The notes under the pieces: generated by a model | Database searches by the model: none | What the model was told of the DNA's origin: nothing | The model's input: the letters and a program-made list of their open reading frames with translations, nothing else | Assembly: GCF_054482525.1 (NCBI RefSeq) | Contig: NZ_CM137006.1 | Direction: 5' to 3' (one strand) | DNA: 64,000 bases | Position numbers and translations under genes: made by a program | In this document: in pieces, positions 18,797 to 42,617 of the stretch | Layout: each line of letters starts with the position of its first letter | Numbering within the stretch: the first letter of the stretch is position 1

Positions 18797-18962
18797 ATTT
18801 TCAGAAATGGGAGGCTGGGAGTCTATCGAAATGGTTCGTCGATATGCTCACCTCGCGCCTAATCACCTTACCGAACACGCACGGCAAATAGACTCAGTCC
18901 TGAACCCATCGGTCCCAAATTTGTCCCAGTCAAAAAAAAAGGAAGGTACTAATTATGTGTAA
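18797..18962 (+). pseudogene. C-terminal fragment of a tyrosine integrase
   Basis: [28 protein letters not shown] matches the conserved integrase C-terminus (catalytic Tyr in RYAHL); only about 55 codons remain. Confidence 0.6.
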
Positions 18963-20980: not shown

Positions 20981-21003
20981 TATCCAATATCCAATATCCA
21001 ATA
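20981..21003. repeat. Short tandem repeat (tatccaa x3)
   Basis: tatccaatatccaatatccaatat read directly from sequence. Confidence 0.6.
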
Positions 21004-21032
21004 TATCGGTGTAGAGGGCTTCTCTCTTAAAC

Positions 21033-22230
21033 TGATCCTACCCGCGTAATGTGGACACGCTCCTAAGCGAGATTCTGGTTTTCAAACTGTTTCGGGCTGA
21101 GGCCGCCATAATCGCTGTGACGCCGCCAGCGATTGTAATCGCACTTAATCCGCCGTCCGCATGATTTCCCGGCTGATAAAGCGTTCTCCGTGGATACACT
21201 CGACTTTTAACGAGTGTAAGAAGCTTTCCGCACAGGCATTATCATAACAGCAACCTTTTGCGCTCATGCTGCCATGCAGATTATGTCGTTTCAGCAGAGC
21301 CTGATAATCCGCTGAGCAGTACTGCCCGCCACGGTCGGTGTGAATTCGCCGCCACAGCGCCATCTGCAGTGCATCACAGGCAAGTTCTGCCGTTATTTGC
21401 GAGGACACCAACTAGCCAATAATAGCACGCGACCACCAGTCTATAACCACGGCAAAGTATAACAAGCTTTCATCGATGCGAAGGTACGTGATGTCACCAG
21501 CCCACTTCTGGTCCGAGCCACTAGATCTGAAGTCCTGCTTCAGCAGATTCTCCGGCACTGGCTGGTCGTGAGCACAGTAGATTAACGGGCTGAACAGACG
21601 TGAGGTTTTTGCCCGCAGGCCCTGACGACGCGAACTGTTGCTATCGTTTTGATGTTGTATTCCGGCGGCTCGTCTGCAAGACGAGCCGCACCATAACGCT
21701 GTTTTGCCTCAACGAATACCTTACAGACAGCTTCATTGAAGACGCACCGGAACTGTTGCCGATGGCTCAGTTGGGGACGACGCAGACACCAGGTATACCA
21801 GCAGCTGTGCGCCACGCACAGCACCCGACACATAGCTTTGATACTGAACTCAACCTGATATTTTTCGATAAAGATATACTTCATTTCAGGCGCTACGCGA
21901 AGTATGTCGCGCCCTTTTGGAGAATAGCCAACTCATTATCCCGCTCAGCCAGTTGACGTTTGAGGCAGGCAATCTCCGCTGCTTGTGCGCTCTCTCTCAG
22001 AGGATATTGTCTGGTGCAGTTGTTTGTAGAGCTGGGAATCGTAAAGGCTGAGTTCACGGGCGGTAGTGGCCACACCGAGACGTTCGGCCAACTTAAGGGC
22101 TTCTTCACGAAATTCAGGCGTGTGTTGTTTGCGTGACTTTTGTTGATTGATGCTGATTTTGTCATGTGAGCTACCTCTGATTGAGAGTTTACTCGCTTAG
22201 TCCCGTGTCCACTATTGGTGGGTAGGATCA
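21033..22230 (-). mobile_element. Degraded IS3-family insertion sequence (frameshifted orfA, interrupted orfB)
   Basis: Terminal inverted repeats tgatcctaccc (21033) and gggtaggatca (22220); ORFs 21893..22231, 21582..21884 and 21145..21411 match InsE C-terminus ([23 protein letters not shown]) and InsF N- and C-terminal parts, but not as continuous frames. Confidence 0.75.
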
Positions 22231-22579
22231 TTATTGATCAAAGATCAAGATGTGCAAAAATTCCCAAGTAAAGCCTTATCTGAACCTTCCGTTTTGTTAG
22301 CACATCTGACATTATTATTCAGTCAAATCCCTTCAGTTGATTGAGTTCAAAGGCGGTAGCTATGCTGATTTGCATTACTGTAAAACTTTTAAAGCAGAGG
22401 TTTATATAGAATTGCTCTGTTGAATAAATTAGTAGGTTCACATGGATTTTGAGTTCACCAAGCATGACAACTTGCGTTCTTCAAGCGATCCTGAGAAGCC
22501 TATTATATTAGTGTACAAGATGCCTCACGTGGCACCACTGAATTTTACATTAGACTCTATCCATTAAAACGATAAAATT

Positions 22580-24313
22580 ATGTACATAGCAAAAATTAAA
22601 TTTACAAATTTCAAATCATTCAAAGAGATGTCTTTTGAGTGCAATGATAAATTCAACATAATTGTTGGTGAAAATAATATTGGTAAAAGCACATTATTTG
22701 AGGGGGTAAGTTTATGGAAATATGCTTATGACAACCTTATTCAAGAAAAAAACAAAAACAAATTCTACAAAGCTTCAACTAACTACTACATTACCTATTC
22801 TACACTCGATCAAATAAGACTTGTTGACGATATTGATATTTTTAACGACCCAAAGAATAGCTCCGCATCAATATGCATTACAATTAAAGATGAACAAAAT
22901 GAATTTGATTTAGAGATTAGATTTGAAAAGCCAGGGATTAAAAATTCATACTTACGGATATTTAATAGCAATGGTTCTGATAATGACACACAGTTTTCAA
23001 ACTTTGAACGATTCTCAAACTATATAAAAGAAAAGGATTGCACTCTAAAAGATGCCATTTACATTTACCAAACAAGACCAATATCAACTATTTTTAGAGA
23101 TGAGCCATTTTACAATAATGCGCAGATAGAGAAAAAAATAAATATTGGAAAGTCACATGATGTCTTAAGGAATAAAATATTAAAAACCGAAAATACTCAA
23201 GCCACAAGGGTTGCACAAAAATTTGAAAATCTTGAGATTCGCCTACAAAAAGTCCTTGGTGAAAACTATATCTTAAAATTTAAGAATAGAAATCGAATCG
23301 ATGATGAGTATGTTAAAATAACTGCAACAAAGGAAAACGGGAAAGAATTGGAAATATCACTTATGGGTAGTGGTTTTTTGCAAGTCTTAGAGATATTTTC
23401 AACAATTGAGTATATGGAAAAGAATTCAACCGGTATTAACCTCATTCTTATCGATGAGCCTGATTCACATATCCACTCAAATTTACAAGCAAATTTAATT
23501 GACGAACTAAAGCAACAAACAGCATGTCAAATTTTTGTCATAACACATAATGACAGACTAACATCAAAAGCTAATGAAGGTGAGCTTTTTTATCTAAATC
23601 AGATAGTTAAGGATCTTGGTTTATTGTCTCACCTTGAAATATCTGATTATTCAAAAGTTAAAGATGGTCTAGCTAATGTACTAACAGCTATAAATGATGG
23701 AGATGAAACACCCATTGTTATAACTGAAGGAAAAACGGACCAGAAAATTTTAACAACTGCTTGGGAAAAGCTAAACCCAGGAACTCCTATGCCTTTTAAA
23801 ATAATTTCATCCGGCATTCAAATTGAAGAGGAAAAAAGAACTGGGTGCGCAGAGGCAGTTAGAAGATCTTTAGAATACATTTCAACATTAACTGATAGAA
23901 CAATTATCGGTTTATTTGATAATGATCGGGAGGGAAATGAGCAGTTCAAAGGATTAAATCGTTCTATTTTTGAACCTCATGACCTGCAAAATAACTCCCG
24001 AAAACATCAGATAAAAAATATCTATGGGCTTATTCTTCCCGTTCCTGTGCATAGAGAACGTTTTGTACAAAACAATTCTTTAACGCAGCGTTACTTCGTA
24101 ATTGAACAATATTTCCAAGATGAAATATTACTACAGCATAACATGAAAGGTGAGTCAATATTAGGTACTGAGGTATTTTTTGTTAATGACTCAAGAAAGA
24201 ATGAGTTTTCAGAGTCAACCAATGACCTTCCGGTAGAATGCTTTGGGGATTTTAGTATTTTATTCGATAAAATTTCCGATTTATTGGCTAACAATAGACC
24301 AGAAAACACTTGA
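22580..24313 (+). CDS. OLD-family ATP-dependent endonuclease (ABC-type ATPase + C-terminal TOPRIM)
   Basis: Walker A GENNIGKST, Walker B/H-loop LILIDEPDSHIH, TOPRIM glutamate IVITEGKTD and DxD motif FDNDREG; 577 aa; strongly AT-rich codon usage. Confidence 0.7.
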   Translation: MYIAKIKFTNFKSFKEMSFECNDKFNIIVGENNIGKSTLFEGVSLWKYAYDNLIQEKNKNKFYKASTNYYITYSTLDQIRLVDDIDIFNDPKNSSASICITIKDEQNEFDLEIRFEKPGIKNSYLRIFNSNGSDNDTQFSNFERFSNYIKEKDCTLKDAIYIYQTRPISTIFRDEPFYNNAQIEKKINIGKSHDVLRNKILKTENTQATRVAQKFENLEIRLQKVLGENYILKFKNRNRIDDEYVKITATKENGKELEISLMGSGFLQVLEIFSTIEYMEKNSTGINLILIDEPDSHIHSNLQANLIDELKQQTACQIFVITHNDRLTSKANEGELFYLNQIVKDLGLLSHLEISDYSKVKDGLANVLTAINDGDETPIVITEGKTDQKILTTAWEKLNPGTPMPFKIISSGIQIEEEKRTGCAEAVRRSLEYISTLTDRTIIGLFDNDREGNEQFKGLNRSIFEPHDLQNNSRKHQIKNIYGLILPVPVHRERFVQNNSLTQRYFVIEQYFQDEILLQHNMKGESILGTEVFFVNDSRKNEFSESTNDLPVECFGDFSILFDKISDLLANNRPENT

Positions 24314-25088
24314 TACTGTACTGCATTTTCCATATCGAGCTAAAACGGACCATTCGCTTTTAAAGTGATTACGGCATACGGGACAGATTTTCCTTAAAGC
24401 AAACGTCTCCTTCACGCCCTGAGACATTCGACATTAAGTAAGAACGGGGGTGCGCCTCGAGTGCCAGCAAATATTTTGCTTCGTCGTAGCGGGTTCTGGT
24501 CATCCAGCAGCTGTAAATGATCCTTATCCATTTATACGCCAGAGCCCAAATGGCTGATTGATGCGATTTTCCTTTTCTTCGCAGCTCTTACTAATAAAGT
24601 CTGGCCCAGAATGATGAGTTAATCGTCTTTGCAGCCCATTCCACGAATGTCTGTCGGACGAGCTCCGCACATTGCCAACATCAGTGTACCCAAGATTTCT
24701 GGCCGCTTTGTTCTGTCACCGGAAAAATACCTGCGTAGTTTTGAATTTCTTCAGCGCAGTTTAACTGGTCACGGTTACTTGAAGAAAGAAACTGACCACT
24801 GCGCTCGTCGTTCGGAAGTGCCAGGGCTATCGGTGGATATTAAGGGAAACCTGACAGCCGGAGGTAATCAGGGTTATTAATGCCGTCAGTGTGGGCCCCG
24901 CTACCAGTGAAACACTAATGTATTGATTAAGTTTCATATTCTTCCTTAATGAAAATAAGCATGTTTTCTTTTGCTAAATCAGTCGTCGTTGGCGATGAAA
25001 CCGGCTCACACATCACGCGATTGTTAAATGAAAAAGCCCCTATTGCGTGAGCAACAGGGGCTATATTTATTTTGTGTCTATAGAGGCA

Positions 25089-25499
25089 TCAGTAACCAGT
25101 TTTAACCTTGTACATCAATAGTGTTTTACTGCCCCGGACAATTTTCACATACAGGGCATTATCTTTCGTGCCTCGCACAAAACCGGCCTGCACATCGCCC
25201 TTACAGTCACCACCGTCGTAAGGAATATTGACACCTGTCTGACGCACCAGATCAATAACCCCGAAGCTTAAGTCCTCACAGGCCGGGCCCGGCAGGTCCT
25301 GAATCAGGGCAAATTTATGGTCGTCGCTGACACCGGTCAGTGAGCACATGGAGGTATTGATGTCGTTTCCCTGGCACCAGTACTCCTGACCGGGATTATC
25401 TTTATCCATCAGACTTGCCGGAAGCTGAGCGGCACCGGCACTGAAGGCGGCAAGTGACAGAATGAGGGCGGGTACAGCAGAGGTCATTATTTTCAGCAT
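25089..25499 (-). CDS. Hypothetical secreted Cys-containing protein
   Basis: Signal peptide MLKIMTSAVPALILSLAAFSAGAA; 136 aa. Confidence 0.5.
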   Translation of the reverse strand: MLKIMTSAVPALILSLAAFSAGAAQLPASLMDKDNPGQEYWCQGNDINTSMCSLTGVSDDHKFALIQDLPGPACEDLSFGVIDLVRQTGVNIPYDGGDCKGDVQAGFVRGTKDNALYVKIVRGSKTLLMYKVKTGY

Positions 25500-25565
25500 G
25501 GTTTTCTTCCTGAATTAATCCAGCCCGCTGTCGGGCAAAATGAGGGAGGTTGGTATCGGGTATTA

Positions 25566-26003
25566 TCAGAAGCGCCGGTAGCGAAACAGCTCTTTGCCCT
25601 GGTAAAGTGCCACCAGGTCGTCATATTCCGGCTTCTTCTGGTTGGGCTTAAAGGTCACTACCGTGCCCGGACGGCACAGATCTTTTACGGTGAGACCGAA
25701 TTTCCTATCCGGAGTAATGGTGAATCCCTTCGACACATCGTTGTGCATGATAGTTATCCAGCCCCACAGGCCGCCTTCGCAGTCCTTAAAGGGTGCTGAA
25801 CGAACTGTTACCATCCCACCCAGGCGGTCAACAGACATGGCTTCACATTTTCCGGTAACCTGTCGATGCGCATCACACCAGAAAATATTCCCGTTGTTGT
25901 CATTGACGACTGCAGGTAGCGTTCGGTTATAAGGCTGAGCCTGAGCGCCCACACAGAGCAGAAGGCTGCCGGTAATACCCAGTACTTTAATCAGTGTTTT
26001 CAT
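25566..26003 (-). CDS. Hypothetical secreted Cys-containing protein (possible paralog of 25089..25499)
   Basis: Start trimmed to MKTLIKVLGITGSLLLCVGAQA signal peptide; similar size and Cys/Trp spacing to the neighbour. Confidence 0.5.
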   Translation of the reverse strand: MKTLIKVLGITGSLLLCVGAQAQPYNRTLPAVVNDNNGNIFWCDAHRQVTGKCEAMSVDRLGGMVTVRSAPFKDCEGGLWGWITIMHNDVSKGFTITPDRKFGLTVKDLCRPGTVVTFKPNQKKPEYDDLVALYQGKELFRYRRF

Positions 26004-26044
26004 TACGTTGGTCCTTAACAGAGAAAGAATCAGGTAGCAGTCAT

Positions 26045-26581
26045 TCAGGCCCAGACGGTCAGGCCCAGCATCAAAAGCCATACCCAGAAGTAAGCCGGTT
26101 TCTGACCGAGAGTTTTCGCCCGCCGCCACAAATAGAACGGCACCAGCCAGGCCAGTTTGCCGAACGTGGTAGTGTCCACTCCGGCCTTACGAAGGCGTCG
26201 TTCATCGAGATACCCCAGAGCGATATTGAGCAGCAGCGTGATAAACCAGTACTGCCCACCCGAGACGGCATCATATGCCTCGTCAAATGACATCCCGCTC
26301 AATCCTGCAGTCCACAACTCCAGCGCGTAGCCAATGAAGGGAGCAAATGCAAGCGTCCACACAACGCCACCCGGAATGCGGTTCCCCGTCAGCGCTGGCG
26401 GTGTGGTGCTGTGGAGCAGCGCCGAAGCCAGCGGGGTGGCGGAGACCGGTTGCCAGTCCGGCATGCCCTGTCGCCACACCAGCGTGGCAGCGGTGAGTTC
26501 ACCGCGCTTAATCAGGTTAGTGATGTCGTCTTCGGTCACATTGTCGTGACGTATGCCATTTTTCTCGTAATGCCAGGTCAT
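26045..26581 (-). CDS. Membrane protein with N-terminal DUF4339/GYF-like domain
   Basis: N-terminus WHYEKNGIRHDNVTEDDITNLIKRGELTAATLVWRQGMPDWQPV followed by hydrophobic helices. Confidence 0.5.
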   Translation of the reverse strand: MTWHYEKNGIRHDNVTEDDITNLIKRGELTAATLVWRQGMPDWQPVSATPLASALLHSTTPPALTGNRIPGGVVWTLAFAPFIGYALELWTAGLSGMSFDEAYDAVSGGQYWFITLLLNIALGYLDERRLRKAGVDTTTFGKLAWLVPFYLWRRAKTLGQKPAYFWVWLLMLGLTVWA

Positions 26582-34753: not shown

Positions 34754-36853
34754 ATGAACCGAGAGCAAGCCCAACAACTGCTGCAGACTGCTTTGGCTAA
34801 CCCTGCTGCTGAATTTCGTGATGGTCAGTGGGAAGCCATTGATGCATTGGTTAATCGTCGTCAGAAACTACTGGTTGTACAGCGTACCGGCTGGGGTAAG
34901 AGCTCGGTTTATTTTATTAGTACTAAAATCTTCCGTGACCGCGAGATGGGGCCTACGATTATTGTATCGCCACTGCTTGCATTAATGCGTAACCAGATTG
35001 ATTCAGCGCAGCGTTTGGGAATAGTTGCCGAAACAATGAATTCGGCTAATAGGGAGGATTGGCAGGCTGTAACTCAACGAATTCTCAATAACCAAATAGA
35101 CTGTTTGCTCATTTCCCCAGAGCGGCTAGCAAATGATACCTTTATTGAGACGGTCCTTCAGCCCATTGCCGATCGAATCGCCCTAATGGTAATTGACGAA
35201 GCACACTGTATTTCAGATTGGGGTCATGATTTTCGTCCTGATTATCGCCGTATCGTAAATATCCTTCGTCAATTGCCCGCCAACACCCCAGTACTAGGTA
35301 CGACTGCAACTGCCAATAACCGAGTTGTTGACGATATCCAAGCCCAGCTTGGGGATATACAAATCCACCGAGGTCCTCTTACTCGCGAAAGCCTCGCTCT
35401 GCATACAATGTCTTTACCCGATCAGGCATCTCGTTTAGCTTGGCTCGCCCAAGTTATTCCGATGCTACATGGAACAGGCATTATTTACGCATTAACAGTT
35501 CGTGATGCCGAGCAGGTGGCAGAATGGTTGAGCATGCACGGTATAGTTGCCATGGCATACCACGGTAGCATCGAGGCTGAAGGTTTTGAGAACAGCAATG
35601 CTTACCGTCAGTACTTAGAAGAATTGTTACTTAACAACCAGCTTAAGGTTTTAGTAGCAACGACCGCGTTGGGTATGGGTTATGATAAACCTGATTTAAG
35701 TTTTGTAATCCATTACCAAGCTCCGAGTTCAATTGTTGCATACTACCAGCAGGTGGGTCGGGCTGGGCGCGGTATTGCTCATGCAACAGGTGTACTGATG
35801 TCGGGGATAGAAGATAACGACATCCATGATTTTTTCCGTGATTCTGCATTTCCATCGGAGGATCAAGTTAACGATATTCTTCGAGTGTTGGAAAATAATG
35901 ATGGTCTATCACTCCGCAACATCGAGGAAAAAACTAACCTACGCCACGGCCAGATTGAGAAAGTACTTAAGTTACTGAGTGTAGAAAATCCAGCCCCCAT
36001 CATTAAAAATGAAAATCGTTGGGTTAGGACCACAGTTCGCTATCAAATGGATCATGCCCGAATTGCTCATTTGACAGGACAACGTATTCAGGAATGGGAA
36101 GAGGTTCAAGCGTACCTTACCGACACTGGATGCAAAATGGCATTTCTACGTCGTTCTCTGGACGATCTCGACCCAACTCCATGTGGTAAATGCTCGTCCT
36201 GTATTGGTCAACCAATTATAAATCAAATCATTGACCCTGCTTTGGTACATCGTGCAGGGACTTTCCTAAAACATGCAGAAATGCCGATTACTCCAAAAGC
36301 TCAGGTAGCAGCTAATGCTTTTTTGCAATATGGCTTCAGCGGCAATTTGCCACAGCAGATTAGAGCACAAGAAGGTCGAGTGTTGTCTCGCTGGGGAGAT
36401 GCTGGTTGGGGACGGTTAGTAGCCGATAATAAACGTGCAGATCACTTTGATGATGAGCTAGTGGTTGCTATGGCCGAGATGATTCAGCAGCGTTGGCAAC
36501 CGAATCCAGCGCCACAATGGGTATGCTGTGTACCTTCACGCAATCATGTACAATTAGTCCCTGATTTCGCTCGCCGCTTGGCGGCATGTTTGAGGTTGCC
36601 TTTTTTCAATGCCATCAGCAAGGTTAGAGATAACCAACCTCAAAAGGGGCAACAAAACCGTTTCCATCAATGCCGCAATCTGGACGGTGCTTTTGAGATA
36701 AATCAACCTCTACCTAACACACCGGTTCTACTTGTAGATGACATTGTAGATTCAGGCTGGACGTTAACTGTCATCGCAGCACTCCTACAACGCGCAGGTA
36801 GTGGTAAAGTATACCCTGTTGCACTTGCTTCATCTTCGGTAAAAGACTCATGA
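34754..36853 (+). CDS. RecQ-family helicase fused to a C-terminal phosphoribosyltransferase-like domain (PsyrT-like)
   Basis: Helicase motifs GWGKS (I), DEAH (II), TATA (III), QQVGRAGR (VI); C-terminal type-I PRTase motif VLLVDDIVDSGWTLT. Confidence 0.8.
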   Translation: MNREQAQQLLQTALANPAAEFRDGQWEAIDALVNRRQKLLVVQRTGWGKSSVYFISTKIFRDREMGPTIIVSPLLALMRNQIDSAQRLGIVAETMNSANREDWQAVTQRILNNQIDCLLISPERLANDTFIETVLQPIADRIALMVIDEAHCISDWGHDFRPDYRRIVNILRQLPANTPVLGTTATANNRVVDDIQAQLGDIQIHRGPLTRESLALHTMSLPDQASRLAWLAQVIPMLHGTGIIYALTVRDAEQVAEWLSMHGIVAMAYHGSIEAEGFENSNAYRQYLEELLLNNQLKVLVATTALGMGYDKPDLSFVIHYQAPSSIVAYYQQVGRAGRGIAHATGVLMSGIEDNDIHDFFRDSAFPSEDQVNDILRVLENNDGLSLRNIEEKTNLRHGQIEKVLKLLSVENPAPIIKNENRWVRTTVRYQMDHARIAHLTGQRIQEWEEVQAYLTDTGCKMAFLRRSLDDLDPTPCGKCSSCIGQPIINQIIDPALVHRAGTFLKHAEMPITPKAQVAANAFLQYGFSGNLPQQIRAQEGRVLSRWGDAGWGRLVADNKRADHFDDELVVAMAEMIQQRWQPNPAPQWVCCVPSRNHVQLVPDFARRLAACLRLPFFNAISKVRDNQPQKGQQNRFHQCRNLDGAFEINQPLPNTPVLLVDDIVDSGWTLTVIAALLQRAGSGKVYPVALASSSVKDS

Positions 36854-38175
36854 ATGTATCTAACTTATTGTCAAAAACAGCCCAGGCGACCTTACTTCTG
36901 ACTAGTTATTTTTCTAAAGCAACTAGCGAAAACGCCAAACCACTTTCCAACGCCGAATGGGGACGTTTTGCGCTATGGTTGAAAGAAAAAGCAGTTACGC
37001 CAGCTGACTTGTTGGACTCTGATCCTCAAACCTTACTGAATGGCTGGTACGACTCCCGTATCAGTACGGATCGGATCATTGAGTTGATGAATCGAGGACA
37101 TAGCCTCGCTTTGGCTATGGAGAAATGGCAACGGGCAGGCTTGTGGGTAGTGACACGTTCTGATCCAGAATATCCATGGAGATTAAAACATCGGCTTAAA
37201 ACAGACTCTCCCCCTGTTTTATTTGGCTGTGGCAATAAAGCCTTATTAAATAGAGGGGGATTGGCTGTCATTGGTTCTCGAAATGCCAATGCATCAGACC
37301 TTACTTTTACTGATCACATCGGCGTTAAAGCTGCGGACGAAAATATAGCTGTTGTATCTGGTGCTGCACGTGGAGTAGACGAAACAGCCATGTTAGGTGC
37401 AATGAGGCAAGGTGGAGTTGTAATCGGGATTTTGGCAGATAGCCTGTTAAAAGCTGCGACTAGTGCCAAATGGCGCAAGGGGCTTATGAATGACCATGTT
37501 GTGCTAATATCCCCTTTTTACCCTGAGGCTGGTTTCTATGCGGGAAATGCCATGGCTCGCAATAAATATATCTATTGCTTGTCGGATAGTGCATTGGTTA
37601 TTCATTCTGGTCGAAAAGGTGGAACAATTAGTGGGGCAGAGGAAAATCTTAAGAAAGGATGGGTGCCACTATGGGTCAATCCAACAACCGATCTAGATTC
37701 AGCTAATGCTGACTTAGTGAGCAAAGGGGGACATTGGTTGCCAAGTGATAGTAATGGCCTATCCATCGAGAATTTGCTTAAAAATAATGACAGATCAAAA
37801 ATGCAGTTAAAAGCAGAGCCCCAAGATCTTTTTTCAGAATTGTCGCATCCAGAATTAATTATTGGATCTGCAGAGAAATCGTCAACTCAAGCTCTCGAAA
37901 AAGATTGGACTGCTACTATTAATGAAGAAACTCCCAACCTAATAACTACGGAAAAAAAATTAGAGGAAAAAGAGTTAGATGTAAATCCTATAGACTTTTA
38001 TCTGCTATTCAGGACAGAATTACAGCGATTGGCCGAACATCCAATTACAGTAGATAGGTTGACAGAAGTCACTGGGTTGAATAAATCGCAAGTGCTTGAT
38101 TGGTTGAAACGTGCTGAACAAGATGGTTTGGTAAAAAAACTAAACCGTCCTACAAGATATCAATTAAATGAGTAG
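36850..38175 (+). CDS. DprA/Smf-like Rossmann-fold protein with C-terminal winged helix (PsyrA/ShosA-like)
   Basis: DprA core LAVIGSRNA...VVSGAARGVDETAMLGA...GGTI; ATGA start/stop overlap with the upstream helicase gene. Confidence 0.75.
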   Translation: MNVSNLLSKTAQATLLLTSYFSKATSENAKPLSNAEWGRFALWLKEKAVTPADLLDSDPQTLLNGWYDSRISTDRIIELMNRGHSLALAMEKWQRAGLWVVTRSDPEYPWRLKHRLKTDSPPVLFGCGNKALLNRGGLAVIGSRNANASDLTFTDHIGVKAADENIAVVSGAARGVDETAMLGAMRQGGVVIGILADSLLKAATSAKWRKGLMNDHVVLISPFYPEAGFYAGNAMARNKYIYCLSDSALVIHSGRKGGTISGAEENLKKGWVPLWVNPTTDLDSANADLVSKGGHWLPSDSNGLSIENLLKNNDRSKMQLKAEPQDLFSELSHPELIIGSAEKSSTQALEKDWTATINEETPNLITTEKKLEEKELDVNPIDFYLLFRTELQRLAEHPITVDRLTEVTGLNKSQVLDWLKRAEQDGLVKKLNRPTRYQLNE

Positions 38176-38356: not shown

Positions 38357-39346
38357 TTATGTCTTTCTTTCAAGTGCAACTCCTAGATCCGCTGCCATTT
38401 TTTGGATTAGCCTCCAATCTAGCGGCCATTCTTTTTCTAAAGTAGATCTCCGTCTTTTGATTAACCAGTAAACGAAAATAACAACGCTTTGTTCAAAGAA
38501 ACTACTCCCTTCTTTGCCATCCTGAATTAGTAGTTCGAGCTCAGGAGTCTCTTCTATAAATTGATGTAATCTTTCTATCGTATCGGGTTTGATCACTTCT
38601 TTAAATGTATCTAGAATTAATAAAGTCGATTTTTGATTGTTTGGTTTATTCTTTGTTAAAGCTATGTAGATATTATCTAAAGTTCGCTGAATTCCTGCGT
38701 AACCATCAGATGCTGCGTTAATTGCTTTCGATACTGAACAGAAAAAATCATCCGTAGTTTCTATTAACGCCATGCTTTTTGCTACAGTTCTATGTATATC
38801 TGGTTCAACTATAGTTTTTGCTTTATATATGGCATCATGAGTTAACTCGGCATAGGCATGTTGTAATAAAGATCTAACCTGTATCTCACATGGAATGCCT
38901 TGTTCAATGATAACTCCATTATAATCAAAGGATTCTTTTGCAGTTACTATAAAATGTACGGATTGATACGTGAAAATTAATGGTGTATTTAATCTTTCTT
39001 CTTCGTAGTGTCTTGATGTCTTATAATGCCATTTATTACTACTTTTTATTATTTCACATATTTCATCTATATCTGAAGTAAGTAAAACGACAAACCTGAT
39101 GCCAACTTTATCTTCAATCTCTTGGTAGGGGTTTTTGTATGATTTTTCTTTTCGATGAAAAGCTTTATCGATTAGAGATGTCTTTTCTTTTATTCTCGGT
39201 GTCGCAGGTTGCTTGAGAAAGCTATTGAGGTCCCGCTCTTTATTTTCTGAGAGTTCTTTGCAAATATTTGAGACGACAAAATCTCCCCATGCTTTATACA
39301 TGGGTAGTTCTTTTTCCCAAAGTTGCGAAAACTCTAATTCATTCAT
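38357..39346 (-). CDS. RelA/SpoT-fold nucleotidyltransferase (toxSAS-like)
   Basis: Synthetase-domain signature PRIKEKTSLIDKAFHRKE, GIRFVV, YQSVHFIV and CEIQVRSLLQHAYAELTHDAIYK (EIQIRT..QHxWAE..H..YK); AT-rich. Confidence 0.7.
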   Translation of the reverse strand: MNELEFSQLWEKELPMYKAWGDFVVSNICKELSENKERDLNSFLKQPATPRIKEKTSLIDKAFHRKEKSYKNPYQEIEDKVGIRFVVLLTSDIDEICEIIKSSNKWHYKTSRHYEEERLNTPLIFTYQSVHFIVTAKESFDYNGVIIEQGIPCEIQVRSLLQHAYAELTHDAIYKAKTIVEPDIHRTVAKSMALIETTDDFFCSVSKAINAASDGYAGIQRTLDNIYIALTKNKPNNQKSTLLILDTFKEVIKPDTIERLHQFIEETPELELLIQDGKEGSSFFEQSVVIFVYWLIKRRRSTLEKEWPLDWRLIQKMAADLGVALERKT

Positions 39347-39354
39347 TAATTAGC

Positions 39355-40446
39355 TCATTCCTGAAGGGTTATCTTGTCCTTGATGAGGATTGTTGTCCAC
39401 TCAGCAGGTTTACCATCTTTATCGAGTTCACCTATAGTAGATTCAATTACAATATGGCTTTTAAAAACTTCCGCAGGGGCTGTGATTTTTATATTTTTAC
39501 TAAAGTTAAGCTTTCTTGTTTTTAATTTGCTTTCAATATGCTCGTTGTCTCTTGTGAAAGAGGTTTGTGGTATACCAGATTCATGAGCATACTCAAGATA
39601 AAGATCCTTAATACTATCATCAAAAAATCTTTCAGCATAATCTTTAGCTGAAATTACATCCGATTTTTCATGTTTAAGATATGTAACTAATGCATTTTTA
39701 AGCACATTTTTCTTTTCCTCGCTGACATCCAATTCATTAAGAAATTCACTCGTTTTTTCATAGAAATTCTTTGTTGTGCGGGCACTTGTTTCTGGGTAAC
39801 CGCAACCTAAAAAATTTTGATAAAAATATTGTGCTGCAGCTTTACCATCCGACTTACTGATTTGATAGTCAGAAATCATCACATCCCAAGATTTATTAAG
39901 ATCAGTATTATCAAGAGAATTGGTTGATTGGAAAAAACCGGCAGTTTTATAAAGTTTTGTGGATGGTGTAAGTAATATTTCTTCAACGAATTTTAATGAT
40001 ATTTGGCCCGTTTTATCGTCGATTACTTTTTCATATGCACTATAAATATCAGCCTTGATAATTCCAATGAATTTTCTTTTATTTACACCATAGTCGCCAG
40101 AAAAGATTACTACAATTCCGCCTGGAATTGCTCGTCTTGTCTGCGCATCTGCCAGTTTATTAGCTATTGTGTAAGTCTCATCAATATAATCCTCTCCCTC
40201 TTTATCAATTAAAGTTGTAGCAATATAAGGAACATAATCTTTTCCATGCTCCTTTATTTGCATTTTTACGGCTTTAGAACCATCACCTAAAGCGTCGATT
40301 ACTCGTGATTTAAAACCTTGCAAGGCATCAGCATCAAATTTTATAAATGAAGAACCTCTTGTTGGTTCTATTTTGTTTCCTTCTTCGTCGCGCTGATGAA
40401 TTTGGTGGATAATTATTTTGTTAATATTCATTTTGCTGATATTCAT
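39355..40446 (-). CDS. NA37-family nucleoid-associated protein homolog (YejK/NdpA-like)
   Basis: Similarity along the whole length to remembered YejK: N-terminus INKIIIHQIHQRDE vs INQIALHQLIKRDE, and central and C-terminal blocks; AT-rich. Confidence 0.65.
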   Translation of the reverse strand: MNISKMNINKIIIHQIHQRDEEGNKIEPTRGSSFIKFDADALQGFKSRVIDALGDGSKAVKMQIKEHGKDYVPYIATTLIDKEGEDYIDETYTIANKLADAQTRRAIPGGIVVIFSGDYGVNKRKFIGIIKADIYSAYEKVIDDKTGQISLKFVEEILLTPSTKLYKTAGFFQSTNSLDNTDLNKSWDVMISDYQISKSDGKAAAQYFYQNFLGCGYPETSARTTKNFYEKTSEFLNELDVSEEKKNVLKNALVTYLKHEKSDVISAKDYAERFFDDSIKDLYLEYAHESGIPQTSFTRDNEHIESKLKTRKLNFSKNIKITAPAEVFKSHIVIESTIGELDKDGKPAEWTTILIKDKITLQE

Positions 40447-40463
40447 TTCTGTGTAGTTCCATC

Positions 40464-40931
40464 TTATTGATTATCTGATTTTATATTTTTGCTTTCAATA
40501 TATTCTTTGTGAATATTATTCCATTCTTGACTGTCTTTTTCCCAAATAGATTTATATTCATCAAAAAGACTATCAATATCTGACTGGGTTACATCTTCTT
40601 TGGATTTTAAGTAATTAACTTTGTTTCTAAGTTGATACATGGCTAGCAAAGTAGCTTTTTGCCTAAACCATAATTTTTGATAATCAAATCTTGCAGTCCA
40701 CCCACTAACTAGAGTAAGACAGGCACTCACAATAAGAGCAGAATTTTTCTGTATTTTTTCATATCCAGATAAATCGAAGGCTAATATCAGTGTAGTAATA
40801 GTGCTCAAAAATATAGTCATGAAAAAAAATATTTTTAATTTTTTTTTATTCCATTTCGCCTTGCACTTTATTATGTTGATACTTTTATGGATTTCATCCA
40901 GTAAAAACTGTTGAGAAGATGTTATAGACAA
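40464..40931 (-). CDS. Small 2-TM membrane protein, SLATT-like
   Basis: Two hydrophobic helices (FFFMTIFLSTITTLILAF, ALIVSACLTLVSGW) followed by a charged helical tail; first gene of the three-gene operon. Confidence 0.5.
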   Translation of the reverse strand: MSITSSQQFLLDEIHKSINIIKCKAKWNKKKLKIFFFMTIFLSTITTLILAFDLSGYEKIQKNSALIVSACLTLVSGWTARFDYQKLWFRQKATLLAMYQLRNKVNYLKSKEDVTQSDIDSLFDEYKSIWEKDSQEWNNIHKEYIESKNIKSDNQ

Positions 40932-41175: not shown

Positions 41176-42378
41176 TTACACTACCGCATGTAAGATTCTA
41201 CGTACAGAGTGTAGATCAATCAAATAGTCTGAATACCACTGCATCATCTCTCTTCGCCCCTCCAGATATTGCGCATGGTTGTACGTCCCACGAATCGCAT
41301 TCTTATCGACATGCGCAAGCTGGGTTTCAATCCATGCCGTGTTGAACCCTTCCTCGTGCAAAATCGTACTCATCGTGTGACGGAAACTATGCCCCGTTAC
41401 CTTCCCCGTATACCCAATCCGTTTGAATACCTGATTAATACTCGCTTCACTCATCGTTTTACGTGGATCATTGCGCCCTGGGAACACCAAAGGATATTGC
41501 CCGGACATTACTTTGAGCTGTTGTACGATTTCTAGCGCTTGGGTAGAGAGGGGTACAAGATGGGGCCGTTTCATCTTCATACGCTCTGCAGGTATTTCCC
41601 ACACCGCTTTCTCAAGATCAAACTCACTCCAGAAAGCACCTCGAAGCTCGCCAGTACGAACTCCCGTAAGGATAAGCAGACGAGCGGCAAGAACAACTAA
41701 CGGGCTTCCTGTATAACCTGCGAGAGCTTTAAAGAAGTCTGGTAACTCCTCTACTGACAGGAAGGGATAATGCTTCGATTCATGCCCTGACATCGCGCTG
41801 GTTAGGTCCGCTGCAGGATTGTATTCCGCGCGACCTGTAACGATGGCATAACGAAAGACTTCGCTGCAGCGCTGGCGAACCTTCTTGGCCTTCTCTGTCG
41901 CGCCACGGCTTTCGATTCGACGCAGCACATTAAGCAGAACCAGCGGTTTGATTTCATTCACTGGCAGTTGGCCGATATAGGGGAAAATATCTTTATTGAA
42001 GGCTTCGATAATATCGGAGGCATAGCCTTCTGACCACCGGCTCACCTTAGTACCGTGCCACTCAAGCGCCACAGACTGGAACGTGTTGTTGAGCTGCACA
42101 TCGCGAACCAGCTTTTCTTCTTTCTTTGCGAAAGACGGGTCGATACCCTCGGCCAGCTTTTTCTTGGCTTCATCACGCAGAGCCCTCGCTTGTGCAAGGG
42201 AAACAGCCGGATAGACCCCAAAAGCCATACGCTTCTCTTTTCCATTGAAGCGATATTTCATTCGCCAGTATCGAGAACCAGAGGGAACGACTTCAAGATA
42301 CAAGCCAGCACCATCTGCCAGCTTATAGGCTTTCTCTTTGGGTTTAGCAGCGTCTACCTGTCGCGCATTAAGCTTCAT
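41176..42378 (-). CDS. P4-type tyrosine integrase
   Basis: Start trimmed to MKLNARQV; catalytic motifs GVRTGELRG, HSFRHT, LAHVD..RGTYNH; immediately adjacent to the tRNA-Thr 3' end. Confidence 0.85.
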   Translation of the reverse strand: MKLNARQVDAAKPKEKAYKLADGAGLYLEVVPSGSRYWRMKYRFNGKEKRMAFGVYPAVSLAQARALRDEAKKKLAEGIDPSFAKKEEKLVRDVQLNNTFQSVALEWHGTKVSRWSEGYASDIIEAFNKDIFPYIGQLPVNEIKPLVLLNVLRRIESRGATEKAKKVRQRCSEVFRYAIVTGRAEYNPAADLTSAMSGHESKHYPFLSVEELPDFFKALAGYTGSPLVVLAARLLILTGVRTGELRGAFWSEFDLEKAVWEIPAERMKMKRPHLVPLSTQALEIVQQLKVMSGQYPLVFPGRNDPRKTMSEASINQVFKRIGYTGKVTGHSFRHTMSTILHEEGFNTAWIETQLAHVDKNAIRGTYNHAQYLEGRREMMQWYSDYLIDLHSVRRILHAVV

Positions 42379-42534: not shown

Positions 42535-42558
42535 TTTGAAATGGTGCCGATAATAGGA
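42535..42558. repeat. Proximal att-like repeat overlapping the tRNA-Thr 3' end
   Basis: tttgaaatggtgccgataatagga; partner at 18971..18992. Confidence 0.5.
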
Positions 42559-42617
42559 GTCGAACCTACGACCTTCGCATTACGAATGCGCTGCTCTACC
42601 AACTGAGCTATATCGGC
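42542..42617 (-). tRNA. thrW: tRNA-Thr (anticodon CGU)
   Basis: Reverse complement reads GCCGATATAGCTCAGTTGGTAGAGCAGCGCATTCGTAATGCG...TTCGACTCC...CACCA: cloverleaf arms, CGT anticodon in the loop, encoded CCA. Confidence 0.85.

Follow-up and report, generated by a model that had tools for sequence, protein, structure and literature searches.

A solitary OLD-like ABC ATPase–TOPRIM protein with a retron Eco2-like nuclease module is a candidate one-gene defence system

Within a 64,000-nucleotide stretch of DNA (NCBI RefSeq assembly GCF_054482525.1, contig NZ_CM137006.1; hereafter the window), a single gene at positions 22580..24313 on the plus strand encodes a 577-amino acid (aa) protein, WP_000275005.1, in which an ABC-type ATPase is fused to a C-terminal TOPRIM nuclease module. 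The protein belongs to an uncharacterised clade with a retron Eco2-like TOPRIM domain within the well-known OLD architecture, rather than to a new kind of system, and by analogy with characterised relatives it is probably a single-protein abortive infection nuclease of the OLD type, in which the ABC ATPase would serve as sensor or regulator of a two-metal TOPRIM effector. The NCBI annotation pipeline PGAP already names the gene product an ATP-dependent or OLD-family nuclease ('ATP-dependent nuclease' for WP_000275005.1), and some homologues are similarly annotated by the Joint Genome Institute. The open reading frame (ORF) is intact, starts with ATG and is identical to the RefSeq coding sequence (CDS) of Escherichia coli SCU-102; the CDS is supported by the ORF list, the RefSeq annotation and homologues at E = 0, and 577 stop-free codons at its base composition would have a chance probability of ~3e-22. 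An earlier note, made from the nucleotide letters alone, had described a 577-aa ORF with ATPase and TOPRIM motifs in an AT-rich island segment. All of the motifs it quoted were located in the translation where it had placed them, and the CDS does form an AT-rich trough in the composition profile, with 31.5% GC (25.8% at third codon positions) versus 49.3% for the whole window.

Both halves of the protein retain intact catalytic motifs; the invariant residues given below come from aligning it with 29 homologues that are 47-86% identical. The ABC ATPase domain at the N-terminus (aa 1-345; 22580..23614, +), delimited by Pfam, Foldseek and AlphaFold2, contains a Walker A motif or P-loop, GENNIGKST (aa 30-38; 22667..22693, +), with G30, G35 and K36 invariant, an ABC signature-like motif, LMGSGFLQ (aa 261-268; 23360..23383, +), with G263, S264, G265 and Q268 invariant, a Walker B and D-loop region, LILIDEPDSH (aa 288-297; 23441..23470, +), with D292 and E293 invariant, and an H-loop, VITHNDR (aa 320-326; 23537..23557, +), with H323 invariant. 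Pfam analysis of the full protein returned ABC-type ATPase families only (AAA_21 at aa 25-327, 3e-16; AAA_15; SMC_N; AAA_23), and PADLOC returned a flat series of defence ABC ATPases at 1e-22 to 1e-14 (NsnB, GajA, AriAB, MAD3, AriA, PtuA and AbiLi), all confined to the first 345 residues except for an AriAB stretch at aa 233-453. NCBIfam matches to MAD3, PtuA, RecF, the Eco8 effector and Rad50 were all far under their curated cut-offs. A Foldseek search with the full AlphaFold2 model, which has a mean predicted local distance difference test (pLDDT) score of 79.5, recovered PtuA of Septu and of retron I-A, GajA (661 aligned columns), Thermus scotoductus OLD (TsOLD) and the heads of SMC/Rad50 proteins. 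In this model, helices at residues 137-151, 168-173, 180-201 and 211-226 lie between the ATPase lobes as a putative helical insertion (~aa 137-226) that is partly of low confidence, with pLDDT <50 at residues 168-192; it may correspond to the dimerisation domain inserted in the ATPase of OLD-family proteins. Collectively, the Pfam, PADLOC, NCBIfam and Foldseek results identify the N-terminal half as a real ATPase of the defence and SMC-like branch that belongs to no particular named family. The ABC-type ATPase with P-loop, Walker B and H-loop that characterises the OLD family is therefore present, as seen in the Pfam matches, the invariant K36, D292/E293 and H323, and the structural matches; the profile search that the earlier note had called for ranked defence ABC ATPases (NsnB, GajA, AriAB, MAD3, AriA and PtuA) as best matches, not non-defence ones. 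A linker at aa 346-377 (23615..23710, +), modelled as a helix at residues 354-372, connects the two halves and travels with the ATPase module in module-boundary alignments.

The C-terminal half (aa 378-571; 23711..24292, +) comprises the TOPRIM nuclease module and a terminal helical bundle. Pfam analysis of the full protein found no family at residues 345-577 and no TOPRIM, OLD-TOPRIM or DUF4435 match, so the TOPRIM status was taken from structure. Residues 378-571 are predicted to fold as a TOPRIM nuclease, bearing out the signatures read by the earlier note, for which the lack of such a fold would have been fatal; the lower-ranked structural matches of this half are generic three-layer α/β folds. 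The glutamate and DxD motif of OLD-family TOPRIM domains are both in place. TOPRIM motif 1 is ITEGKTD (aa 381-387; 23720..23740, +) and the DxD motif is FDNDREG (aa 446-452; 23915..23935, +), with E383, G384, D387, D447, N448 and D449 invariant in the alignment. E383 and D387 correspond to Eco2 E374 and D378, while D447 and D449 have counterparts in Eco2 D460/D462 and TsOLD D431/D433; TsOLD E377/D381 have the same +4 spacing as E383/D387 when compared by motif spacing, as opposed to alignment. Six further residues of the module occupy invariant alignment columns (R474, H476, Q503, R504, Y505 and E509; 23996..24115, +) and, by analogy with TsOLD S478/E480/R487, are candidate second-metal or transition-state ligands.

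The TOPRIM domain of this clade is nearest to that of retron Eco2 (Ec67, type I-C; PDB 9I2F, 9LM3), which cuts tRNA. A profile of the C-terminal half aligned ITEGKTD to Eco2 residues 367-391, placing E383/D387 on E374/D378, and the two proteins have an identical ITEGKTD motif, the glutamate and aspartate at the same positions, and a DxD motif. The sole PADLOC matches of the isolated C-terminal half were RT-Toprim_I-C models (3e-6 to 2e-5, over most of its length), which a stand-alone homologue of the module matched at 5e-8. Neither the Pfam TOPRIM models nor the system-specific PADLOC models detect the domain, PDB sequence searches with the protein and the C-terminal profile gave ATPase matches only plus sub-threshold 1t6t and Eco2, and Foldseek did not recover Eco2. 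Unlike Eco2, the regulatory partner of the TOPRIM domain here is a fused ABC ATPase and not a cage of multicopy single-stranded DNA (msDNA). Membership of retron type I-C was rejected, as neither the protein nor its neighbours have a reverse transcriptase domain, there is no msr/msd RNA or Rfam match, and only the TOPRIM module is common to both.

A search of representative sequences showed the protein to be modular. Some relatives share the ATPase only, up to ~aa 397-406, and others share the C-terminal module only, from aa 378. Over residues 1-406, the nearest relatives of the first kind are 40% identical; their C-terminal domain is a different one, which starts with a VEGxxD motif and gives weak to modest Pfam DUF3226 matches; two such proteins of ~625 aa (P0126 and P0130, from a metagenome and a genome) are 40-44% identical over the first ~400 residues. 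A different C-terminal domain on a related ATPase shows that effectors are swapped on one ATPase chassis. Conversely, the TOPRIM module occurs in MazF/PemK-TOPRIM fusions of ~330 aa (54% identity over aa 378-571, E 1e-66), behind PtuA-like ATPases and, more distantly (30% identity), behind a receiver domain. This recurrence on different N-terminal domains shows that the module is a swappable effector cassette, joined in some cases to an RNase-fold domain and, at a greater distance, to the reverse transcriptase of retron Eco2. The MazF/PemK-TOPRIM fusions, such as P0288 of Acetivibrio thermocellus, have the TOPRIM module in common with the present protein, with an N-terminal MazF/PemK fold in place of an ABC ATPase, and their genes lie directly downstream of a SIR2_2 gene, unlike the solitary gene described here. 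In A. thermocellus (locus L015, 1954-4996) and on a metagenome contig (locus L016, 418-3460), a 649-aa SIR2_2 protein is followed by a 331-aa MazF/PemK-TOPRIM fusion, and the A. thermocellus unit adjoins a Tn7-like TniQ/TnsD; this conserved two-gene unit looks like an undescribed defence pair.

To compare gene neighbourhoods, RefSeq annotation was used for E. coli and called genes for six other genera. The homologue lies between an acetyltransferase gene and thiH in Aeromonas, beside ileS-lspA in Acinetobacter, on an element with a resolvase in Synechococcus and on an 855-kb replicon in Pseudoalteromonas; Vibrio cholerae and Tenacibaculum were also compared. No common neighbour and no adjacent helicase or reverse transcriptase was found across these seven contexts. 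In V. cholerae (locus L006, 4832-8494, JBBBZZ010000079.1), the gene is bracketed by 126-nucleotide (nt) repeats of the V. cholerae repeat (VCR) type and lies ~1.5 kb from an integron integrase that follows infC-rpmI-rplT, and this position between VCR-type repeats just past the integrase indicates that it is a superintegron cassette. The gene is thus solitary in seven genera, in line with the earlier note, which had reported a lone gene with no UvrD-like helicase downstream and hence no Gabija pair; neither the RefSeq annotation here nor the other six genera revealed a GajB or UvrD-like helicase following it. Gabija was also rejected on the profile evidence, since PADLOC GajA matches that extend past the N-terminus end by ~aa 344, short of the TOPRIM domain. 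Menshen (NsnABC), whose NsnB was the top PADLOC match (1.8e-22), was rejected because this match covers only ATPase residues 3-327 and there are no partner genes; NsnB itself carries a C-terminal DUF3696 and is partnered by NsnA and NsnC (PMC12065111).

The gene is sporadic in its distribution. A megablast search with window positions 22000-25000 matched one of 5,426 complete E. coli genomes, at 100% identity (SCU-102, NZ_CP051753.1, a human rectal isolate), while many E. coli contigs encode a protein of identical sequence (84 members, listed in 51 blocks of the collection), and all of the contigs examined have the same genomic context. An exhaustive search of representatives identified 111 clusters (50% identity) at E ≤ 1e-30, and the clade is present in Gammaproteobacteria, Bacteroidota and cyanobacteria. 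No homologue was found in 50,697 phage records, which sets the protein apart from P2 Old, and a search for plasmid carriage returned one full-length copy, on the Pseudoalteromonas 855-kb replicon.

Class 1 OLD proteins are defined by context as ATPase-TOPRIM proteins encoded by a single gene (PMC10568477), and the present protein falls in this class because it has no partner gene. Like P2 Old, TsOLD (PDB 6P74) and Vc OLD, it is a single polypeptide of ~510-590 aa with an ABC ATPase, a helical insertion (a putative one in the present protein) and a TOPRIM domain, in which a glutamate is followed four residues on by an aspartate and then by a DxD motif, and it is encoded in mobile or accessory DNA by a single gene that neighbours no helicase or reverse transcriptase. 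The earlier note had likened it to P2 Old in particular, and this holds for the solitary ATPase-TOPRIM organisation; in sequence, the two are only remotely related. BLASTP aligned P2 Old (AF063097) with it only between Walker B and TOPRIM motif 1, at 24% identity over 132 aa (E 7e-5), and hhalign gave a probability of 65%. The BLASTP alignment pairs P2 Old H332 with H323 and E402 with E383. Membership of the P2 Old orthologous family was rejected, as the PADLOC Old model is not among the protein's 25 best matches (all ≤79 bits), whereas P2 Old itself scores 712 bits on this model and matches GajA models through its TOPRIM domain. In addition, and unlike the Class 1 OLD proteins named above, the present protein matches no Pfam or PADLOC model of OLD-type TOPRIM domains. 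Published Vc OLD was treated as distinct from the V. cholerae homologue, from which it is set apart by numbering only (K48, D313, D468 and D470 misfit the clade).

By analogy with P2 OLD, PARIS and Eco2, the resting state would be an auto-inhibited oligomer, with the ATPase heads and the putative helical insertion as its contacts. A cue from the phage, such as a phage protein or an aberrant nucleic acid structure, could then alter the state of the ATPase or oligomer and expose the TOPRIM site, which would cut an essential nucleic acid (tRNA or other RNA, or DNA) and so stop the growth of the infected cell. P2 OLD is an endoribonuclease powered by ATP, and its target is the anticodon stem of tRNA-Thr(UGU); the E402A mutant no longer cleaves, and H332A prevents an ATP-dependent second tRNA cut (PMC12445682). 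For the same protein, a 2026 preprint describes an inactive tetramer that is destabilised to dimers with an open TOPRIM site, triggered by aberrant DNA structures (bioRxiv 10.64898/2026.07.10.737580). The Eco2 TOPRIM domain is held in a cage of msDNA, and on its release it cuts tRNAs; mutation of its catalytic set, E374/D378 with D460/D462, abolishes RNA cleavage (PMC12916289). PARIS is reported to release AriB, which then cuts tRNA. Because of the Eco2 and MazF associations of its TOPRIM module, we lean very slightly, if at all, towards tRNA or other RNA over DNA as the substrate. A bolder proposal, which we make only tentatively, is that the clade constitutes a distinct, unnamed branch of OLD-like immunity, in which an Eco2-type TOPRIM tRNase would be gated directly by a canonical ABC ATPase of the AriA/NsnB-like kind, in the absence of a retron, helicase or separate partner. 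The TOPRIM domain would then be a portable RNA-cutting cassette that evolution has attached to ABC ATPases of two kinds, to a MazF-like domain paired with SIR2, to a receiver domain and to a retron reverse transcriptase. If correct, this would provide a minimal one-protein model of how the state of an ATPase opens a TOPRIM RNase.

Several observations weigh against an RNA-cutting abortive infection nuclease that is active in its present host. In the PDB search, the profile of the C-terminal half reached Eco2 with an E of only 0.22, over one motif. Vc OLD, which blocks replication of ICP1, nicks DNA, TsOLD uses a two-metal mechanism to degrade DNA, and Eco8 is reported to cleave double-stranded DNA; since OLD-type enzymes also cut DNA, the substrate is not readable from the fold. 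Promoter-like sites upstream of the gene are no commoner than in shuffled sequence, with no obvious Shine-Dalgarno sequence and no terminator, and in Klebsiella michiganensis the gene copy has decayed into pieces of 77, 287 and 174 aa. A literature search by accession (WP_000275005) returned no citing paper.

The first alternative is that the protein is a canonical Class 1 OLD resembling P2 Old, TsOLD or Vc OLD and acts on DNA, by nicking or as a 5'-3' exonuclease, to block replication of the phage genome. We regard this as somewhat unlikely. Its architecture and solitary context are indeed those of this class, BLASTP and hhalign tie the region from Walker B to TOPRIM motif 1 to P2 Old, and the DNA nicking of Vc OLD and the two-metal chemistry of TsOLD, with the same residue-spacing logic, provide precedents. 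However, the similarity to P2 Old is marginal, the Old model is missing from the best PADLOC matches, and the GajA matches end ahead of the TOPRIM domain that they reach in P2 Old. The ABC motifs are also canonical, with a recognisable signature and a D-E Walker B, whereas the Ts-type Class 1 OLDs combine a degenerate signature with substitutions at several catalytic residues, and the Vc OLD residue numbers do not fit the clade. Furthermore, P2 OLD itself acts on tRNA and not on DNA (PMC12445682; bioRxiv 10.64898/2026.07.10.737580).

A second alternative, that the gene is a silent or decaying passenger, an unexpressed relic between two dead insertion sequences (ISs) with no current function in this strain, is unlikely. 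IS remnants do lie on both sides. Upstream, a 414-nt non-coding leader (22166..22579, +) separates the gene from a frameshifted IS3-family transposase pseudogene with an internal stop (21063..22165, -), as annotated in RefSeq, which substantiates the IS3 remnant of the earlier note. Downstream, where that note had placed a non-coding gap, there is instead a degraded 324-nt fragment of an IS110/ISEsa2-like transposase (24453..24776, -), identified by megablast (~82% to ISEsa2 copies) and as a RefSeq pseudogene. The lack of promoter signal above chance, Shine-Dalgarno sequence and terminator, together with the orthologous Klebsiella copy in three pieces, would also suit a relic. Against this, the ORF is full length and retains every invariant residue of its homologues, and the identical protein occurs on the many E. 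coli contigs counted above. It is common for foreign genes that are AT-rich to have no consensus signals, and such genes are often not dead but silenced. A conserved upstream partner, small ORF or RNA was considered and rejected, as neither a 41-aa ORF (22442-22567) nor the 414-nt leader is matched in the other genera and Rfam found no RNA family over positions 21000-25500.

The same 2.8-kb IS3-gene-IS110 block is present at 98.7% identity in a related island with McrBC in K. michiganensis (KK036986.1, locus L018, 4316-7112), and is thus intact in E. coli and decaying elsewhere. The island therefore acquired the block first and spread between genera afterwards. The earlier proposal of a recent horizontal acquisition stands as to horizontal transfer, while 'recent' is only relative, as the block is so closely matched in Klebsiella.

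The earlier note had also suggested a PARIS-like fusion of AriA and AriB. A fused PARIS of this kind, which would respond to anti-restriction proteins, Ocr for example, by cutting tRNA-Lys, is very unlikely. PADLOC AriAB matched at 4.4e-20, its best stretch (aa 233-453) running into the TOPRIM domain, AriA models matched at 2e-18, and the nearest ATPase relatives have a different C-terminal domain, the one starting with VEGxxD. Nevertheless, the C-terminal half alone had no AriB or AriAB match at E < 0.1 and no DUF4435 or other Pfam family, and the AriAB score (70 bits) is of the same order as those of NsnB, GajA, MAD3 and PtuA and hence stems from a similarity that ABC ATPases have in general. 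The clade is also absent from the phage records, whereas PARIS is described as often virus-encoded. A housekeeping or genome-maintenance ABC ATPase of the RecF/Rad50/SbcC type, or a cell-cycle OLD such as archaeal Cran1, is scarcely credible: despite weak NCBIfam and PDB matches to RecF and Rad50 over the first 43-69 residues, and the existence of an archaeal OLD-family ATPase with a cell-cycle role, these matches are far under curated cut-offs (RecF 30 bits versus 172), the gene is sporadic and pseudogenised in Klebsiella, and in all genomes examined its location is accessory, be it an island, an integron cassette or some other such region.

Among solitary OLD-type proteins, only P2 Old, Vc OLD and YbjD have reported antiphage phenotypes in the literature covered, making this the least-studied class of a very widespread defence architecture. 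The clade of WP_000275005.1 may reasonably be considered a candidate one-gene defence system that would enlarge the catalogue of such systems, and it would offer a simple test of whether the TOPRIM subtype predicts an RNA or a DNA target and of how an ABC ATPase gates a fused nuclease.

For the genome itself, the practical result is a better annotated thrW defence island. The gene lies in mobile DNA near defence genes, in an island of ~24 kb inserted at tRNA-Thr (42542-42617), a CP4-type element at the thrW site. An intact tyrosine integrase (41176-42378) marks the tRNA end, and the other end has an integrase fragment (18803-18961) next to a truncated short-chain dehydrogenase/reductase (SDR) oxidoreductase and ykgR. 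The CP4-type backbone includes CbtA/YeeU/DUF987/RadC, DUF932, a YfjP-like GTPase and AlpA, and the genes beyond the IS110 fragment are on the opposite strand. A complete PsyrTA pair (34754-38175, +) consists of the RecQ-like helicase PsyrT (PADLOC E = 0) followed by the DprA-like PsyrA (7e-170). PsyrTA is a known toxin-antitoxin and defence system, and its presence identifies this as a defence island. A second AT-rich block (38357-40931, -; GC 0.32-0.34) adjoins the island integrase. Its products are a protein with a SLATT domain (weak PADLOC '2TM effector' match), a nucleoid-associated protein and a 'GTP pyrophosphokinase' resembling RelA/SpoT (weak PDC-S33 match), and the block may represent a further defence or toxin module of no assigned class. 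Just past the IS110 fragment, two adjacent small ORFs (25089-26129, -) of 136 aa and 187 aa (145 aa as annotated) have N-terminal stretches that resemble signal peptides, and belong to the island backbone, as they are also present in the Klebsiella island.

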